64,000 nt of DNA from Candidatus Marinacidobacterales bacterium (GTDB lineage Bacteria; Acidobacteriota; Vicinamibacteria; Marinacidobacterales; SMYC01): positions 480,001 through 544,000 of the forward strand of contig OZ250169.1 in the NCBI GenBank assembly GCA_965237955.1, in the 5' to 3' direction. The notes under the pieces are model-generated. The model searched no databases, was not told the origin of the DNA, and saw nothing but the letters and a program-made list of their open reading frames with translations. A program made the translations under genes and the position numbers. Shown here piece after piece: positions 54,590 through 63,814 of the stretch (positions are counted from its first letter, which is position 1; each line of letters starts with the position of its first letter).

Positions 54590-54851
54590 CGCTAACGAGA
54601 GACCCGCGGCGCTACCCCCCGACTTCTACGAGGACACCGTGCGCGCGCAACGCCGGCAGGAACTGCATCGGCAGATCGCGACGAACATCGACAGTCCGGC
54701 TCAGCTCGCGGACTCCGGCGAGGAGCTGCGGGACTTCCTAGGACCAATCGGGGACAGATTGATCGAGAAGAGTCCGTTCAAGCAGGTCCTGCCCGCTGGC
54801 GGGCCCTGGCGGCCGGGGACTCAGCCTGGCACGGAAGGCGAAGGACTGTGA
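54590..54851 (+). pseudogene. AbiEii-like nucleotidyltransferase C-terminal remnant
   Basis: PAALPPDFYED...GEELRDFLGP...PAGGPW; no start codon; GTGA overlap with hsdS. Confidence 0.5.
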
Positions 54852-56233
54852 CTGAGGTGACTGATCAGATCGGAGAGGTGCGACCCCGGCGATTCCGGCC
54901 TTACCCAGAGTACAGGGACTCCGGCGTCGAGTGGCTGGGTAAGATCCCAACCCATTGGAAGGTGATAAGACTCAAGACTATGGCCTCGGTGCAACTGAGC
55001 AATGTCGACAAGAAGTCCAAAGCAGGCCAGGTTCCCGTGAAGCTCTGCAACTACGTCGACGTCTACTACAACGACCGTATCACGGCCGAACTCGAGTTCA
55101 TGAATGCAACTGCCACACCCGAGCAGGCGCGACGATTCCTGCTTCGGATTGGCAACGTTGTGATTACCAAGGATTCTGAATCCTGGGATGACATCGCAGT
55201 GCCTGCTGTCGTGGCAGAAGACCTAACGGACGTGCTGTGTGGATACCACTTGGCACAGATCAAGCCGCGACCGGACCTCGATGGCCGGTTTCTTGCCCGC
55301 CAGTTCTCGGCGATTGGCGTGCGAGATCAGTTCCACATTGCAGCGAATGGAATAACCAGGTTCGGCCTGGGTGGAGACGCGATCCGCACTGGCCTCTTTC
55401 CGATCGCGCCGGTCGAAGAACAACGCGCCATCGCCGCTTTTCTCGACCGCGAGACGGCGAGAATCGATGGGTTGGTGGCGAGAACGGAGCGGTTGGTCGA
55501 GCTGCTTCAGGAGAAACGCACCGCGCTCATCACCCGCGCCGTCACCCGGGGCCTCGACCCGAACGTTCCGATGAAAGACTCTGGCGTCGAGTGGCTGGGC
55601 AAGATCCCGGCGCATTGGGAGGTGAAAAGGACGAAGTTCGCGGCCACGCTGCGGTCAGGGCACACCCCCAGCCGACAGAACCCGGAGTATTGGAAGGACT
55701 GCACCATTCCGTGGTTTGGTCTCGCCGACGTCTGGCAAATACGGGACGGGCAGGTCGAATACGTGCACGTAACAGCTGAGAAGATCAGCGAAATTGGAAT
55801 GGCGAACTCTGCTGCGAGGCTCCTGCCGGAGGGGACAGTGATTCTGTCGCGCACCGCATCAGTAGGGTTCTCGGCAATCCTTGGCGTTGATATGGCAACG
55901 ACGCAGGACTTCGTCAACTGGATTTGCGGGCCATTCCTGCAACCCGAGTACCTTCTATACGTCCTTCGTGCCATGGGATCGGAATTTCGGCGTCTCAAGA
56001 TGGGCTCAACGCACCAGACCATCTACATGCCTGATGTCGGTCGCTTCTCAACACCCGTTCCACCGGTTCTCGAGCAGGATCAGATCGTCGCTTTCATTCG
56101 AAAGGAGACCGCAGTTATCGACGCCCTCATCGCCAAAGTCCACCAAGCCGTCGGCCACCTAAAAGAATTCCGCACCGCCCTCATTTCCGCAGCGGTCACC
56201 GGCAAGATCGATGTCCGGGAGGAAGTGTCATGA
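54848..56233 (+). CDS. hsdS: Type I R-M specificity subunit
   Basis: Two DSGVEWLGKIP.HW blocks, two TRDs, EQRAIAAFLD, LISAAVTGKIDV. Confidence 0.95.
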   Translation: MTEVTDQIGEVRPRRFRPYPEYRDSGVEWLGKIPTHWKVIRLKTMASVQLSNVDKKSKAGQVPVKLCNYVDVYYNDRITAELEFMNATATPEQARRFLLRIGNVVITKDSESWDDIAVPAVVAEDLTDVLCGYHLAQIKPRPDLDGRFLARQFSAIGVRDQFHIAANGITRFGLGGDAIRTGLFPIAPVEEQRAIAAFLDRETARIDGLVARTERLVELLQEKRTALITRAVTRGLDPNVPMKDSGVEWLGKIPAHWEVKRTKFAATLRSGHTPSRQNPEYWKDCTIPWFGLADVWQIRDGQVEYVHVTAEKISEIGMANSAARLLPEGTVILSRTASVGFSAILGVDMATTQDFVNWICGPFLQPEYLLYVLRAMGSEFRRLKMGSTHQTIYMPDVGRFSTPVPPVLEQDQIVAFIRKETAVIDALIAKVHQAVGHLKEFRTALISAAVTGKIDVREEVS

Positions 56234-59200
56234 GTCCCGAGATCTCGGAGCGGGCCTTCGAGGAAGCGATCGAGTGCGCGCTGTTGCGCCACGGGCCCGA
56301 CGCCTGCCCGGACGATGCGACCGCGGTGCAGGAGTCGGCGCTGGCGTACGGCGACGAGCCGGTGCCGGGAGGCGGCTACCGCAAGCGCCGACCAGGGGAC
56401 TACGACCGGAGTCTCTGCCTGATTCCGGCCGATGTCGTCGATTTCCTCCTGGCCGCCCAGCCCAAGGAGTGGGAAAAGCTCACGCAGCACTACGGGGCCG
56501 ACGTGAAGCCGCGCTTCCTCGGCCGGCTCTCGCGCGAGATCGGCCGGCGGGGGGCACTCGACATACTGCGAAACGGCGTCAAGGACTCGGGCTGCAAGTT
56601 CCGGCTGGCGTACTTCCGGCCGTCGAGCGGGCTCAACGAGGAGCTGCAGCGCCTACACGCGGCCAACCTCTTCTCCGTAGTGCGCCAGCTCCGCTTCAGC
56701 GAGCACGGTGAGGAGAGCCTCGACCTTGTGCTCTTCCTGAACGGCATCCCCATCTTCACGGCCGAGCTCAAGAACCCGCTCAACGGCCAAGACATCGAGG
56801 ACGCGATCCGACAGTACCGGACTCGCCGCGATCCGCGAGATCCGCTCTTCGCCTACGGGCGCTGCCTTGCCCACTTCGCGATAGACCCGGAGATGGTGTT
56901 CGTGACGACCCGGCTAGTCGGGCCCGCGACCCGTTTTCTGCCTTTCAACCAAGGGCGCTTCGGCGGCGCGGGGAATCCACCAGTGCCGCCCACCCGTCCG
57001 GGCTTCCCGACCGATTATCTGTGGGAGCAGATCTGGGCCCGGAACAGTGTCCTCGACCTGGTCCGCCAGTTCATCCACGAGGTCGAGGAGGAGGAGGACG
57101 ATCGTGGACGCAAGACCGGCAAGCGCTTTCTGATTTTTCCCCGCTACCAGCAACTCGACTGCGTGCGCCAGCTCGTCCGCCACGCTCGCAACCACGGCAC
57201 CGGCGAGCGCTACCTGATCCAGCACTCAGCCGGCAGCGGCAAGAGCTTCACCATTGCTTGGCTCGCCCATCAGCTTTCTGTGCTGCATGATAGCGAGGAC
57301 CGGCGGATTTTCGACTCGGTCGTCGTGGTGACAGATCGGCGCGTGCTCGACCGCCAACTCCAGCGAACCATCCGGCAGTTCGAGCAGACCCTCGGCGTGG
57401 TGGAGAACATTGACCAGACCTCCCGCCAGCTTCGCGAGGCCCTCGAAGCTGGCCGGACGATCATCGTCACCACCCTGCAGAAGTTCCCTGTCATCGCCGA
57501 GCAGATAGGCGGACTTCCCGGCCAGCGCTTCGCCGTGATCGTGGACGAGGCACATTCATCACAGTCCGGCGAGAGCACGAAGAGCCTGAAGGCGGTGCTC
57601 GCGGCAGGGAGCCTTGAAGACGCCGAAAAAGAGGAAGCGGGTGCCGAGACCCCGGAAGAGGAGGTCGAGAACCGGATCCTCAAGGAAATTCGAAGTCGTG
57701 GACGGATGCCGAACCTCTCGACGTTCGCCTTTACGGCGACCCCGAAGCCCAAGACCCTTGAGCTCTTCGGCCGGAAGCGACCGGACGGAAAGTTCGAGCC
57801 CTTCCACCGCTACAGCATGCGCCAGGCGATCGAAGAAGGGTTCATCCTCGATGTGCTCGCGAACTACACGACCTACAAGGCGTACTGGCGTCTGCTGAAG
57901 AAGATCGAGGACGACCCGCGGTACGACAAGCGACAGGCGGAGTATCTGCTCAAGTCCTTCGTCGAGCTGCACCGGCATGCGATCCGCGAGAAGATCGCTA
58001 TCTGTGTGGAGCATTTCGCGGCACAGGTCGCGGGCGAGATCGCCGGGCGGGCCAAGGCGATGATTGTGACGCGCTCGCGCCTGCACGCGGTACACACCAA
58101 GCTCTCCCTGGATCGCTACTTGGCCGAGAAGGGCCATCCCTGGAAAGCGCTCGTCGCCTTCTCTGGAACGGTGAAGGACCGTGGCGAATCCTACACGGAG
58201 TCCGGCATGAACTCGGCCGGTCAAGAGCGGGTCATCGGCGAGCGGCAGACGGCAGCCGAGTTCGACAAGCCCGAGTACCGCTTCCTGGTGGTTGCCAACA
58301 AGTTCCAGGCCGGTTTCGACCAGCCCCTGCTCCACACGATGTACGTGGACAAGAAGCTCGGCGGTGTGAACGCGGTCCAGACGCTGTCCCGCCTGAACCG
58401 CACGCATCTCGGCAAGAAGGGCACGATGGTGCTCGACTTCGCCAACGAAGCCGAGGAGATCAGGAAGGCTTTCGAGCCGTACTACGAGACCACTTTGCTC
58501 TCGGAGGAGACCGACCCTAACCTCCTCTACGAGGTTCAGGGCAGACTGCTCAACTTCGGCGTGTTCATGTCCGACGATGTCGAGACCTTCGGGCGGATGT
58601 ACTTCGATCCCAAGTCGACCCAGGACAGGCTCTACGCGGCGCTGGAACCCGCGCGACAGCGCTTCGTCGAGCTTGCGCCCGCCGAGGGGCGCGACTTCCG
58701 CGGCCAGCTCACCGACTACGTACGCCTGTACGTCTTTCTATCCCAAGTGCTGAGATTCGCCGACCCTGACCTTGAAAAGCTCTACGTTTTCGCCCGACAC
58801 CTCCGGCGCCTGCTGCCGGCCAGCCGTGAGGAGTTGCCTCGCGAGGTTCAGCAGAACATCGACATGGAGTCTTTCCGTATCCAACAGACGAGCCGCGGCC
58901 GGATCCCGCTGGAACGGCAGGTTTGGCCGCTCGAACCCGTCGGGAGCAAGTTGCACAGCGGCCTCGGCACGCAGGAGCTGGAGGCGCTCTCGCGGATCAT
59001 CGAGGCGTTGAACGAGCGCTTCGGCCTGAACCTCGGCCCCGAGCACCGCGTCACGCTCGAGCACATTCGCTCGGCCCTCGACGACGACGCCGGCCTCGAC
59101 GCCAGCGCCCGGGTGAACACGCGCGAGAATGTGCGGCTGACCTTCGACCCCAAGGTTGAGGACAAGATCCAGGAGATCGTCGAGACCAACTTCGAACTGT

Positions 59201-59772
59201 ACAAGCGGATCACCGACGACCTCGACTTTGGCCGGACGTTCAAGAACTTCCTCTTTGACGACTACATCCGGCGGCACCGACGAGCAGAGGAGCTGCTCAA
59301 GCTCCAAGAATCAAAGACACTCGAGTTCAAGTCGAGCCTGCGCTGGAACCTGCAGGAGGATCGCAAGGACGACAAGCACGTGACCCACGCGGCGCTCAAG
59401 GCTATCGCCGCGTTCCTCAACACCGAGGGCGGTGACCTTCTGGTCGGCGTGGACGACAACCGCGAAGTTCTTGGCATCGAGAATGACCGGTTGGAGACCG
59501 AAGACAAGTTCATGCGGCACTTGGCCCAGGCCGTGCGCAATGGTCTCGGTGACCGCGCCGCCACCTGCATCGATCCGAAGGCACAGATCGTCAAGGGCAA
59601 GACCATCTGCCTCGTGAGCTGCCAGCGGAGTCCCGAGCCGGTGTACTTGCAATGGAAGGGCTTGGAGAAGGCCAGTGACGGCGATCTCTACGTCCGGAGC
59701 GGCCCGGGTACAGTGCGACTCGGCGAGGAGGACGCCGAGAAGTACGTCGCCACCAGATTCGGCTCGAAGTGA
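56230..59772 (+). CDS. hsdR: Type I R-M restriction subunit with C-terminal Schlafen/AlbA_2 domain
   Basis: PIFTAELKN, HSAGSGKS, DEAHSSQ, FTATP; then ESKTLEFKS...AAFLNTEGGDLLVGVDD...LYVRSG. Confidence 0.93.
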   Translation: MSPEISERAFEEAIECALLRHGPDACPDDATAVQESALAYGDEPVPGGGYRKRRPGDYDRSLCLIPADVVDFLLAAQPKEWEKLTQHYGADVKPRFLGRLSREIGRRGALDILRNGVKDSGCKFRLAYFRPSSGLNEELQRLHAANLFSVVRQLRFSEHGEESLDLVLFLNGIPIFTAELKNPLNGQDIEDAIRQYRTRRDPRDPLFAYGRCLAHFAIDPEMVFVTTRLVGPATRFLPFNQGRFGGAGNPPVPPTRPGFPTDYLWEQIWARNSVLDLVRQFIHEVEEEEDDRGRKTGKRFLIFPRYQQLDCVRQLVRHARNHGTGERYLIQHSAGSGKSFTIAWLAHQLSVLHDSEDRRIFDSVVVVTDRRVLDRQLQRTIRQFEQTLGVVENIDQTSRQLREALEAGRTIIVTTLQKFPVIAEQIGGLPGQRFAVIVDEAHSSQSGESTKSLKAVLAAGSLEDAEKEEAGAETPEEEVENRILKEIRSRGRMPNLSTFAFTATPKPKTLELFGRKRPDGKFEPFHRYSMRQAIEEGFILDVLANYTTYKAYWRLLKKIEDDPRYDKRQAEYLLKSFVELHRHAIREKIAICVEHFAAQVAGEIAGRAKAMIVTRSRLHAVHTKLSLDRYLAEKGHPWKALVAFSGTVKDRGESYTESGMNSAGQERVIGERQTAAEFDKPEYRFLVVANKFQAGFDQPLLHTMYVDKKLGGVNAVQTLSRLNRTHLGKKGTMVLDFANEAEEIRKAFEPYYETTLLSEETDPNLLYEVQGRLLNFGVFMSDDVETFGRMYFDPKSTQDRLYAALEPARQRFVELAPAEGRDFRGQLTDYVRLYVFLSQVLRFADPDLEKLYVFARHLRRLLPASREELPREVQQNIDMESFRIQQTSRGRIPLERQVWPLEPVGSKLHSGLGTQELEALSRIIEALNERFGLNLGPEHRVTLEHIRSALDDDAGLDASARVNTRENVRLTFDPKVEDKIQEIVETNFELYKRITDDLDFGRTFKNFLFDDYIRRHRRAEELLKLQESKTLEFKSSLRWNLQEDRKDDKHVTHAALKAIAAFLNTEGGDLLVGVDDNREVLGIENDRLETEDKFMRHLAQAVRNGLGDRAATCIDPKAQIVKGKTICLVSCQRSPEPVYLQWKGLEKASDGDLYVRSGPGTVRLGEEDAEKYVATRFGSK

Positions 59773-59887
59773 TCTCCACCCGACTAGTCTGCTTTTACGA
59801 GATATCCGAATGTGTGCCACTCTCCCTGTCGGGTGGTTTGATGACGTTGTCAAAAGCGAAATCAAGCCGCTCAAGAAAGGAGCCGAT

Positions 59888-61005
59888 ATGGGAAGTCTGC
59901 TACGAAGGGTCAAGGAACGCAAGAAGACGCGTCGTCTAGGTGAAGTAGAGGTCATGGAGCAAGAGGGATACGGGGAGCTCGAGGTGGACTCGAAGGTCGA
60001 GATGATCCGCGCACTGGTGCCTCTCGGCCTGATGCATGTTCACGAGTTGCTGGACGCCGAGGTCAGTGAGCTTAGGTGGACGAGTTGCTTCTACGAAGAG
60101 TGATGTACGGGATCTCGTGCCGGAACTATGAGTCGGCGGCGGAATTGGTCCCGGGCGCGATCGGTCTGTCGAGTTCGTCGGTGTCGCGCGGCTTCGTCGA
60201 AGCAAGCGCAGCGAAGCTGCGTGAGATGCAGGAGCGTGATCTCTCGGGTGAGGACGTGGTGGCGATGGTCCTGGACGGCAAGACGTTCGCCGACGCGACG
60301 ATGGTGGTGGCTCTCGGCATCACGTTATCCGGGGACAAACGCTTCCTCGGCTTCGTGGAGACAGACACTGAGAACGAGCGTGTTCTTAGGCCGTTCCTGC
60401 GTTCATTGGTCGAGCGGGGTCTCGATATCTCTGAAGGGCTGCTGGTGGTCATCGACGGCAGCAAGGGGCTGCGAGGAGCCGTGACCAAGGCCTTTCGCAG
60501 GCGGGTCGTCGTGGGCCGTTGCCAGTGGCACAAACGAGAGAATGTCGTGCGCTATTTGTCCAAGAGCGAGCAGTCGTTGTGGCGCAAGCGGCTGCAGCGC
60601 GCGTACGGCCGGCCGACGCACAAGGAGGCGCTTGAGGCCCTCGAGCAACTCCACCGCGAGCTGGAAGAGAGGAATCAGTCTGCGGCCTCTAGCCTCGAAG
60701 AGGGGCTGGAGGAGACCCTGACCTTGCATCGTCTTGGCGTGTACGGGGTGCTCGGTCACTCACTAAAGACGACGAACTGCATCGAGTCCGTCAATGCGCT
60801 TATCGAGGAACGTTGCGCGAAGGTCGATCACTGGAAGACTTCGAACCAACGCCAACGCTGGCTCGCGACCGCGCTCACCGACATCGAGCCGCGCCTCCGG
60901 AAGGTGATGGGCTACCGACACCTTCCAAAGCTGCGTGAAGCGCTCAAGCGTGAACTGAAGATCGAGACCGCGAAAAAGAATACGTCGAGGAAGAACGTTG
61001 CTTAA
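59888..61005 (+). pseudogene. IS256-family transposase with internal deletion and frameshift near 60075
   Basis: N-terminus ...LLDAEVSEL joins out of frame to VMYGISCRNY...VLDGK...VIDGSKGL...RCQWHKREN...TTNCIESVN. Confidence 0.8.
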
Positions 61006-61079
61006 ACGAACCGGGAGCCGTGGACAATTTCAACTAAGCATCGTACGCGCAGGGCTCGCGATCTATCTGGGTAGAAACT

Positions 61080-61281
61080 CCAGTGCTGCATGGAGCGTCC
61101 GTTTCATACAATAGCGGGAGCATCCGGGAACCGAGGCCGACTCAACACTGGTGCGATCCAGCCCGTAACTAAGCATGGCCCGGGGATGTTTCGGCACTGT
61201 CAGTGGTGACACGCGTGAGCGTGATCCCGTTTAGGAGAATGTAACGAATGCCCATCCCTGTTCCCGGATGCTTCACGAAGT
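61080..61281 (+). ncRNA. Putative IS110 bridge/seek RNA (limits approximate)
   Basis: Non-coding left end holds AACTAAGCAT (61167-61176) and TTAGGAGAATG (61231-61241), identical to the two junctions. Confidence 0.7.
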
Positions 61282-62685
61282 ATGAAGGAGCATCTGATGA
61301 AGCACAATCGTCGTCAACCCAAGAAGCGGACTTCTCCATCCCTGCTGAAGCAAATCAACGTGAATGTCGCTGGGATCGATTGCGGCTCGGCCGAGCATTT
61401 CGTCGCAGTTCCACCGGAGCGCGATCCTAAACCGATCCGTTCCTTCAGGAGTTTCACGGCCGATCTTCATCGGCTCGCCGACTGGCTCGCGACTTGCGGC
61501 GTGACGAGCATCGCGATGGAGTCGACCGGCGTCTACTGGATCGCACTGTATGAAATCCTCGAAGCCCGTGGCTTCCAGGTCCTCTTGGTCAACGCGCGCC
61601 ACGTCAAAAACGTCCCGGGGCGCAAGAGCGATGTCAGCGATTGCGAATGGCTCCGGGAGTTGCACAGCGTGGGGTTGCTCCGCGGAAGCTTTCGACCCGA
61701 AGCAGCCATCACCGCCCTTCGTGGCTACCTCCGCCACCGAGAGACTCTCGTTCAGAGTGCGGTAACCCATATCCAGCGCATGCAGAAGGCTCTCGTGCAA
61801 ATGAATCTTCAACTCCACCTTGTGGTCACTGATATCACGGGTGTCACTGGCATGCGGATTCTACGAGACATCGTTGCCGGACAAACCGACCCCCATCGGC
61901 TCGCTAAGCACCGTGACCACCGTTGTCAGTCCTCCGAGGCCGAGATCGCCGCTGCACTCACCGGCAACTATCGCCCCGAGCACCTCTTCGCTCTCAAGCA
62001 GAACCTCGAACTCTTTGATGCTTTTCAGCTCCAGATCCAAACCTGTGACGTGGCCATCGAATCGCACCTGCAGCTTCTAGCTCAACGCTCAACCCCGAAC
62101 ACCTCCTTGCCACCGCCTCGAAAATCGCGCAAGCCCCGAGTGAACGAACCTCGGTTCGAGCTCCGGCCTCTCCTCCACCAGATCGCCGGGGTCGACCTCT
62201 CCCAGATCGACGCCATCGGACCCTATTCCGCGCTTCGCTTGCTCGCCGAGATCGGTACCGATATGAACCGATGGCCTACTGAAAAGCACTTCACTTCCTG
62301 GCTTACCCTCGCGCCCAATAACAAAATCTCCGGCGGGCGACTCCTCAGCTCGAAAACACAACCCTCTGCAAACCGCGCCGCTGGCATTCTCCGCATGGCC
62401 GCACTCAGCCTCGGGCGTACACAGACCGCTCTCGGCGCCTACTATCGACGTCTCGCCTATCGCGTCGGTAAATCCAAAGCCATCACCGCCACCGCTCGAA
62501 AGCTCGCCATTCTCGTCTACCGCACTCTCAAGGATGGGCTCGTCTATCAAGACCCCGGGGCCGCCGCCTACAACGCTCAAGATCGCTCCCGTGCCGTGCG
62601 CCGCCTGACCCAACGCGCCGCTGACCTCGGTTTCGCTCTCATCGACACTCAAACGGGCGACGTCGTTCAGGCGGTAGTTTCTTAG
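61282..62685 (+). CDS. IS110-family DEDD recombinase/transposase
   Basis: AGIDCG, AMESTG, RKSDVSD, C-terminal ISGG serine motif, ATARKLA. Confidence 0.93.
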   Translation: MKEHLMKHNRRQPKKRTSPSLLKQINVNVAGIDCGSAEHFVAVPPERDPKPIRSFRSFTADLHRLADWLATCGVTSIAMESTGVYWIALYEILEARGFQVLLVNARHVKNVPGRKSDVSDCEWLRELHSVGLLRGSFRPEAAITALRGYLRHRETLVQSAVTHIQRMQKALVQMNLQLHLVVTDITGVTGMRILRDIVAGQTDPHRLAKHRDHRCQSSEAEIAAALTGNYRPEHLFALKQNLELFDAFQLQIQTCDVAIESHLQLLAQRSTPNTSLPPPRKSRKPRVNEPRFELRPLLHQIAGVDLSQIDAIGPYSALRLLAEIGTDMNRWPTEKHFTSWLTLAPNNKISGGRLLSSKTQPSANRAAGILRMAALSLGRTQTALGAYYRRLAYRVGKSKAITATARKLAILVYRTLKDGLVYQDPGAAAYNAQDRSRAVRRLTQRAADLGFALIDTQTGDVVQAVVS

Positions 62686-62700
62686 GAGAATGGGCTTGAC

Positions 62701-62952
62701 TCAGATATCCTTGACCGCATCCGCACCGAAAGTCAGGACGAGTCCGAGAAGGGGCGCTGGTTCGAGCAGTTGTTCATGCGCATTGCGCTTCAACAACCTT
62801 GAATTTGAGCTCAACGGGATCTGGCGCCGGCCCGACTGGCCCGAGCGTGAGGTGTTGACTGGCCGAGACACTGGAATAGACTTCGTCGCACGGTGGACCA
62901 CAGGCGAGCGGGTCGCCATCCAGTGCAAGTGCTACGAGGATCGCTGTACTCT
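62701..62952 (+). pseudogene. Type ISP R-M N-terminal (Mrr-like nuclease) remnant
   Basis: ILDRIR...EKGRWFEQL / IW..DW...DTGIDFVA...AIQCKCY; frameshifted and cut both sides. Confidence 0.7.
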
Positions 62953-63814
62953 TTCGTGGATGAGGTATCGCTTGCCAAGGAGGAAACCATCCCACATGTC
63001 AGTGAGGTTTCTTGCCACCTGCTTCATCCACTCCCCGTTGGGGTCCGACGTTATCCCACCGATGCACACGCAGCGAGTGGCGATATCGATGACAAACAGG
63101 ACATGGTAGCGGACGAGCCCGAACGGGTTCACAACCTCGACGGTGAACAGGTCTGTCGCAGCGATGGCGCCCCAATGAGCCTTGATGAAGGTGCTCCACG
63201 ACATGCTCCTGCCCCGCTCCGGCGCAGGAGCGATACCGTGCTCGGCGAGGATCCTCTTGATAGTGTTGCGTCCGAGTTCATGTCCTAGGTTCTTGAGTGC
63301 GCCTCGCAGGCGCGTATATCCCCACGTCGGGTTCTCCCGCGCCACGCGCACAATGAGCTCACGGATGTCCTTCGCCGTCGGAGGCCGGCCTGGGCTCCGG
63401 TTCTTGCTGCCATCGTACTTGGCTGCGATGAGGTGGCGGCACCAGCGCAGAAGCGTAGCGGGTGTGGCAACGGACGCAATCTGGGCCAGCGCCTCGCGGC
63501 CCAAAGCCTGGGCCTTGACCGCGAGCCTGCGCCGGTCGTCGTCCGAGAGCCTGAGACGCTTGCCCCGAAGCCCGGCTCGGAGCACACGGTTCTCCTCTTG
63601 CTGGTAGTCGATCACATCCTGCTGCTGGCGGTTGACCCAGCCAGCTAGAACGAGCAGTAGGAATTGCACGTGGTACGTCATCATGGACCTGAAGATAACA
63701 CCCTCGGGCCAGACGATTGTAAAGCCTACGGCCCTTGGCCCCGGCGCAAACACAGACACTAAGCTGCTGATTTATGGCCTATTTCAAAAGGGCCGAGTTT
63801 TGGCACAGGACGGG
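62953..63814 (-). mobile_element. Family-A element copy 2, transposase 3'-truncated (CDS from 63684)
   Basis: Highly similar to ~632-1492; breaks after IH of IHDRD. Confidence 0.9.

Follow-up and report, generated by a model that had tools for sequence, protein, structure and literature searches.

A multicopy IS110-family element with an AG core and a predicted two-loop bridge RNA that likely reads its own joined ends on one folded DNA strand

What is known of the closest IS110-family systems is given here from those parts of each cited source that were covered. In IS621 and ISCro4 (PMC11208160, PMC11208158, PMC13626964), a recombinase with DEDD residues and a serine is combined with a bridge RNA in which a target loop is followed by a donor loop, on a CCG...UGG scaffold that carries five guide nucleotides, the core and a two-nucleotide handshake on the 3′ strand; in both loops of the IS621 RNA, the handshake bases come after the right guide, which lies on the 3′ strand (PMC11208158). 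The seekRNA elements of the IS1111 group (PMC11187229) encode proteins of 330–350 aa, have their RNA region downstream of the gene and sub-terminal inverted repeats of 7–17 bp near both ends, and place the match to the top DNA strand before that to the bottom strand, the reverse of the order in the IS110 element tested in the same report. ISPpu9 of Pseudomonas putida KT2440 (PMC12288879) has an AG crossover and a long 5′ leader and, as judged by eye from the supplement, a 43-bp left A box with an inverted repeat plus a short right B box; the covered parts of its description contain no guide mapping, reversed polarity, A-box/B-box complementarity or folded donor. Work on ISPpu10 (bioRxiv 10.64898/2026.03.19.712850) and on single-strand copy-out of IS621 (bioRxiv 10.64898/2026.08.31.748434) assigns a role in IS110 reactions to the secondary structure of DNA and to intermediates that are single-stranded, and papers from 2025–2026 pose the question of the strandedness of IS110 circles and of the insertion route of a single-stranded circle.

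Here, we describe an element of this family in a 64,000-nt stretch of a Candidatus Marinacidobacterales genome (GenBank contig OZ250169.1, positions 480,001–544,000; hereafter the window, whose coordinates are used unless the genome or contig C1 is named). Fold, DEDD residues and serine, loop order, scaffold and the make-up of the 3′ guide strand are shared with IS621 and ISCro4. In contrast to these, the element reads DNA in reversed polarity relative to the gene and has a handshake in the target loop only, and its donor site is not a contiguous 14-bp duplex, since the fourth guide finds its match behind a hairpin. With the IS1111 group it shares the top-strand match preceding the bottom-strand match, whereas its RNA region lies upstream of the gene, its right end overlaps the stop codon and its protein comprises 462–467 aa. 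ISPpu9 has the same AG crossover, the same long leader and, by eye in the supplement, the same displaced complementary box, but a different target. Our best reading is that of an IS110 element of the ISPpu9 clade with a donor site made of one folded DNA strand. To the account as a whole, i.e. a multicopy IS110 element with an AG core and a predicted two-loop bridge RNA that likely reads the element's own joined ends on one folded strand, we assign a probability of roughly 0.7 on the strength of sequence comparisons.

The recombinase gene occupies positions 61282–62685 (plus strand). The open reading frame from 61282 encodes 467 aa, and the motif AAGGAG at 61285–61290 suggests translation to start at 61297, which would yield 462 aa. 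The protein contains the domains PF01548 and PF02371 (Pfam) and matches NF033542 (NCBIfam) with 253 bits against a cut-off of 140. Its four acidic residues (D33/E80/D117/D120) are kept in 83–84 of 84 aligned homologs, and S350 aligns to the region of the catalytic serine in IS621. Structure prediction (pLDDT 91.5) indicated the protein to adopt the fold of IS621 and ISCro4 (8WT6/9T56; Z 21.4, rmsd 3.4–3.5, ~300 residues aligned). It is ~140 aa longer than these two, with a helical insert near residues 174–231 and a C-terminal helix in the model; modelled alone, the 66-residue helical insert reached a pLDDT of 51. Membership in the IS110 family, already recognized in the preliminary description of this DNA, is secure, although the 467-aa protein named there likely has 462 residues. 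Compared by eye with the printed representative in the supplement of PMC11208160, of which parts were covered, the recombinase groups with the ISPpu9/ISPsy35/ISWpi13 cluster, and the clade, at E ≤ 1e-50, numbers 7,996 protein clusters or more. As a side observation, the column of S350 holds threonine in 21 of the 84 homologs; a threonine nucleophile would be unusual.

The element interrupts another insertion sequence. A match to NF033543 (NCBIfam) above cut-off identified the host as IS256, and an 8-bp target duplication flanks it, with the left copy at 59800–59807 and the right copy at 62703–62710 (both plus strand). Its left part extends over 59808–61036 (plus strand); compared to a relative in the genome, the transposase gene has lost ~175 bp internally and is broken. 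The final 14 bp of the IS256 terminal repeat follow the IS110 element as its right target arm (62689–62702, plus strand), placing the insertion 14 bp from the IS256 right end. The insertion into an IS256 end proposed beforehand is thus borne out by the domain match and the 8-bp duplication.

At the left junction (plus strand), the left target arm consists of a C, which is unmatched by the guide, and AACTA (61031–61036), followed by the AG core (61037–61038; CT on the other strand) and the first two bases of the element (61039–61040). At the right end, a box at 62676–62681, in which GTT is invariant in 57/57 homologs, precedes the donor arm TTAGG with the AG core (62682–62688, plus strand). Genome-wide, we found 11 left and 17 right junctions of the element: C-AACTA-AG followed by the element was present in 11/11, and the same box, TTAGG and AG in 17/17, with varied sequence beyond. 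Probes of 26 nt rebuilt from the flanks recovered uninterrupted alleles in the same genome for seven of the 11 sites. Two were exact (genome positions 1095173 and 7397329) and five further ones had at most three mismatches, including IS256 ends at 313542 and 3680233; for the other four sites, these probes detected no empty allele in this genome. The empty alleles fix the core as AG, in line with the original proposal, without target duplication. Together with the 11 paired junctions, they show an IS110-type insertion at a shared dinucleotide core, without terminal repeats or target duplication. One copy (contig C1, 2893431–2895075) has three extra nucleotides at its right junction as compared to the IS256 end.

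Both junctions recur in the non-coding leader. The sequence AACTAAGCAT at 61032–61041 is found again at 61167–61176, and TTAGGAGAATG at 62682–62692 again at 61231–61241; these strings, and ATGC at 61248–61251, are all located where the preliminary description had placed them. From genome-wide word counts, which include the element's own copies, the probability of either match between leader and junction is ~3e-4 in a leader of 260 nt. The 10-mer AACTAAGCAT is composed of a 5-nt guide, AG, two handshake bases and a scaffold T. The 11-mer TTAGGAGAATG consists of a 5-nt guide, AG and four bases without target covariation, which in the genome follow the right junction at only eight of 17 junctions and in three of 11 complete copies.

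For comparative tests, 160 loci were gathered (79 from genomes, 79 from metagenomes, the window element and a second family of the same genome), of which eight were too short, 45 departed from the scaffold pattern and 107 were parsed. The main tests were run on AG-core elements, 72 in number after one mis-parse had been dropped and 68 after de-duplication, 54 of these having a left junction and 53 a right flank; 30 AA-core elements were kept out and analysed apart. Left junctions were located by searching for the target guide, one mismatch being tolerated, without regard to the sequence beyond the junction. Shuffling leaves some relatedness among elements, for which clustering at 70% and 60% identity is a partial control only.

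The predicted bridge RNA spans 61119–61272 (plus strand) and would be closed by a 13-bp outer stem (61119–61131 with 61260–61272). In a consensus fold across homologs, a stem closed the target loop and both loops contained an inner hairpin; 11 of its 19 pairs showed double changes. No stems closing the donor loop emerged from this fold. The leader is covered by contigs from two of four RNA libraries, and such contigs cannot give strand, ends or level. The four contig sets contained no circle junction; tandem copies with circle-type junctions were found in relatives. A sigma-70 promoter scan of 60950–61400 returned no sites, and Rfam no match for the leader RNA. At the level of sequence, the upstream bridge-RNA region proposed earlier is well founded.

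Within the target loop, the left target guide with the core lies on the 3′ strand (61167–61173) and is followed by a two-base handshake guide (61174–61175; both plus strand). Among the homologs, 34 of 56 elements had an exact recurrence of the target guide 105–170 nt upstream (shuffled 1.0, maximum 6; 48 different guides). The right target guide, on the 5′ strand of the loop (61141–61146, plus strand), is complementary to the top strand: 130 of 255 positions right of the core were complementary across homologs, compared to 68.5 after shuffling. The two bases after the target guide agreed with those that open the element, the first in 54/54 and the second in 47/54 cases (expected 38.7 and 16.0), and the second base still did so in 29/32 and 15/18 after clustering at 70% and 60% identity, respectively. 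The third base is a fixed scaffold T, which matched the DNA in 18/54. After the donor guide, by contrast, agreement was at expectation in the 53 elements (20/53 versus 18.5 and 14/53 versus 11.9), in a test whose power is limited by there being one target site per element, and the bases there avoided matching the donor (1/54 and 6/54). ATGC, put forward as right donor guide, showed no covariation, 136 of 1000 shuffles reaching its score.

Hence, covariation with the flanks supports both guides named in the preliminary description and speaks against ATGC. Of the post-exchange handshake assumed there, the part after the target guide stands, at a length of two rather than 3–4 nt, and the part after the donor guide does not. 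The description overlooked the right target guide as well as the fourth guide and the inverted repeat, both of which are displaced. That handshake bases follow the left guides had been taken as known, whereas in IS621 they follow the right guides (PMC11208158, covered in part). In the element studied here, they come after the 'left' guides because DNA is read in reversed polarity. In order along the RNA, the match to the top strand comes first and that to the bottom strand second. By eye, the RNA of IS621 printed in the supplement shares the CCG...UGG frame, and in its donor loop UGG is preceded by AG-NN; its 3′ donor strand shares this AG-NN-UGG motif yet is complementary, not identical, to the top strand. 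On the simplest reading, the scaffold would be homologous to that of IS621 with the DNA read from the other strand, AG being CT reversed, and the former 'left guides' would be the homologs of the IS621 right guides.

The element targets C-AACTA-AG and shows no specificity for IS256. Of its 11 complete copies, six lie in ends of the IS256 type, of which five are right ends and one is a left end, and the remaining five lie elsewhere; CAACTAAG occurs 49 times in the genome, of which 11 are occupied. Another repeat end served as natural control. It has 103 empty copies, 77 of them with AG and none with AACTAAG; the latter was seen in a single copy, which is occupied. That insertions are frequent in IS256 ends is explained by the target word these ends contain. 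On the right side, the guide predicts TTGAG after the core, where the IS256 end in the window reads AATGG (one of five positions matched); it is poorly matched throughout the host genome, with zero to three of five positions at the 17 junctions. Ahead of the guide match, all sites in the host genome have C, where the RNA has U, and the target flanks of homologs are similar to the donor box (2.07 of 5 versus 1.39 shuffled). Both findings suggest readout by the protein, which probably prefers a TTTC-like flank. The claim that the RNA is programmed against an IS256 terminal repeat accordingly holds for the left arm and fails for the right one. Insertion of IS110-family elements into other mobile elements is already known, IS4321 and IS5075 reportedly targeting their ends, and the IS256 angle is ordinary; a literature search on IS256 targeting yielded no description. 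A loose census of IS256 ends, giving 692 matches, was too permissive and was discarded. The control repeat end, of unassigned kind, is found at contig C1 position 3361235 and about 100 other places, and its core together with five bases is complemented exactly by positions 61143–61149 of the window, in a register offset by two. As a general register, this alignment to one target was unsupported across homologs and was rejected (73 versus 62.7, reached by 33 of 1000 shuffles, whereas the main register gave 130 versus 68.5).

Taken as a complete model, the preliminary description envisaged an IS621-like system with canonical left guides, handshakes of 3–4 nt after both of them, ATGC as right donor guide and programming against IS256. 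The strings do match exactly in the window copy and IS256-type ends do hold six of the 11 complete copies. Nevertheless, given the lack of covariation after the donor guide and at ATGC, the five copies elsewhere, the single matched position of the right target guide at the IS256 end and a handshake position that contradicts the covered part of PMC11208158, we regard this model as very improbable.

Turning to the donor loop, the guide for the right end, together with the core, lies on its 3′ strand (61231–61237, plus strand) and had an exact match near the stop codon in 52/59 elements (shuffled 7.3, maximum 16; 21 different guides). For the 5′ donor strand, no match to the 12 nt beside the core was obtained in ten registers, with wobble or gaps tried and the positive control working, nor was there a short inverted repeat up to 16 nt from the core. 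A reading of the RNA as carrying three guides was dropped once a match of the fourth guide emerged behind a hairpin. Inside the left end lies a displaced inverted copy of the right-end box (61073–61079, plus strand; the complement of 62676–62682). Such a box was present 30–44 nt inside the left end in 54/54 elements and complemented the right-end box without mismatch in 44/45, five variants changing in step (shuffled 22.3, maximum 30). The pairing extends to 7–10 bp in 42/45, to be compared with the sub-terminal repeats near both ends of IS1111-group elements.

Seven bases on the 5′ strand of the donor loop (61195–61201, plus strand), the fourth guide, are identical in sense to the top strand 5–6 nt before the displaced box. 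Across homologs this match scored 255/378, as compared to 142 ± 7.6 after shuffling (maximum 171 among 1000), with the spacer free at 5 or 6 nt and the null given the same freedom; at spacers of 3, 4, 7 and 8 nt, scores were within the shuffled range. The signal persisted after clustering (152/224 versus 86, and 82/126 versus 48.6). Counted from the left end, the matched segment lies about 22–31 nt into the element, flanked by a hairpin and the displaced box. In the window element it corresponds to 61061–61067 (plus strand), with four identities and one wobble out of seven. The hairpin, at 61046–61060, has a stem of only 4 bp in this element (z −0.7), whose lowest-energy fold partly closes the bubble, and stems of 4–9 bp in 49/54 homologs. 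It occupied the position required for folding in 23/54 elements, compared to 2.7 after shuffling, and the distance from stem to box tracked that from core to stem (difference of 4–6 nt in 34/49). The two arms of the resulting bubble are non-complementary (2.73 versus 2.67). In one of the 11 copies (contig C1, 2285501), a base change in the fourth-guide segment makes a perfect match of the wobble position.

Both donor guides pair with the bottom strand at sites ~25 nt apart, and facing each other as in IS621 would require this strand to fold back; from this geometry we infer a folded single-strand donor. Alternatively, the displaced match and the box might be separate binding sites in duplex DNA, reached by looping or only positioning the left end in excision, with the hairpin serving transcription control. 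This would sit well with a modest enrichment of the hairpin taken alone (15/50 left ends versus 6/50 flanks) and with ISPpu9, in which a mutant of the A-box inverted repeat still formed normal circles by PCR (PMC12288879, covered in part), indicating the hairpin to be dispensable for excision there. It does not account for two donor guides that pair with the same strand, those of IS621 pairing with antiparallel strands, nor for the coupled distances in 34 of 49 elements, which are needed by folding but not by looping. We therefore consider separate duplex sites improbable.

If the donor is a folded single strand, the bottom strand, which carries CT, would take the role of the top strand in IS621. 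In the circle, it could pair its two boxes over 7–10 bp as well as its hairpin, leaving an unpaired bubble of ~12–13 versus 14–15 nt whose antiparallel arms would be read by the two donor guides. Such a bubble may be viewed as a pre-melted mimic of a duplex donor, by analogy to the bottom strand of integron attC sites. There, a folded single strand acts as recombination site and one strand exchange is resolved by replication; the enzyme, however, is a tyrosine recombinase, and recognition is by protein only, without an RNA guide. In the element described here, excision and insertion would exchange the CT strand only, replication supplying the other strand (copy-out). Single-stranded excision circles are reported for IS621 in the covered part of bioRxiv 2026.08.31.748434, and missing target repair is reported for CazIS110-1. 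More tentatively, and at somewhat less than even odds, the clade may have inverted its RNA-plus-gene cassette relative to the ends and use the folded single-strand donor as an RNA-programmable single-strand integrase, which would copy one strand out, insert by one exchange and be incapable of excising itself.

The same RNA–DNA pairing might instead take place on a double-stranded circle, with a cruciform extruded at the junction upon binding of the complex and both strands finally exchanged or repaired. Pairing probabilities of the box exceeded 0.5 in 38/45 folds of the bottom strand and 37/45 of the top strand; as the top strand folds equally well, folding alone cannot separate the single strand from the cruciform. 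Tandem copies at a circle-type junction in the second family would also suit a cruciform, as would ISPpu10, which according to the covered part of bioRxiv 2026.03.19.712850 uses a stem-loop in a double-stranded target. However, intrastrand pairing of 11–17 bp around a bubble of 12–15 nt would have to replace ~50 bp of duplex, and the fold-back arm lacks a second core, at which a second exchange could occur, in 51/54 elements. On balance, extrusion from duplex DNA appears unlikely, if less so than separate duplex sites, and we favor the folded single strand. The stem-loop of ISPpu10 lies in the target and is, in the covered part of the report, not itself a guide-read arm, whereas the target side in the clade studied here has no fold-back match (5/48 versus 3.7).

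In the AA-core subgroup, the displaced box was present in 29/30 elements and an exact complement in only 14/20, and the fourth-guide test was weak (79/203 versus 66.9 with a maximum of 77 at spacer 6, which was one of 40 settings; at spacer 5, 82 versus 82.4). This subgroup (L009, L026, L027, L047 and others) is mostly alphaproteobacterial, with A-rich target guides and shorter left ends. The second family of the same genome (49% identity) has the same layout as the window element, with a fourth-guide match of 6/7. Members of this family, at contig C1 4255512–4256876 and in other copies, carry guides of their own and include tandem copies at circle-type junctions.

A literature search over mainly open-access texts, the main texts of preprints included, found no account, for this clade, of reversed polarity with an upstream RNA or of a folded donor. 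Guide callers that assume the geometry of IS621 would miss the fourth guide; one recent survey, in its covered part, considered only donor windows of 50 nt and runs up to 10 nt from the core (bioRxiv 2026.10.21.760802). The sequence signature of the clade makes the folded donor testable, also in ISPpu9, which works in P. putida. If the reading is true, it would mean a programmable integrase for single-stranded donors.

Further features of the genome and the window were noted alongside. In locus L159 (contig C1, 3178804–3182301), one copy has an element of 3.5 kb inserted where its bridge RNA has the left target guide; the inserted element, with inverted ends and a duplication of 5 bp, is present in about 30 copies and prefers CTAAG/CTTAG. 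A third, distant IS110-family group (about 26% identity) occurs at contig C1 4337377–4338528 and about nine other places. Upstream of the host IS256 in the window, genes for Type I restriction subunits S and R occupy positions 54848–59772, with a Schlafen/AlbA_2 domain at the end of R, and positions 62690–63759 hold a fragment of an Mrr-like nuclease gene beside a truncated helix-turn-helix gene (minus strand) of a highly repeated element.
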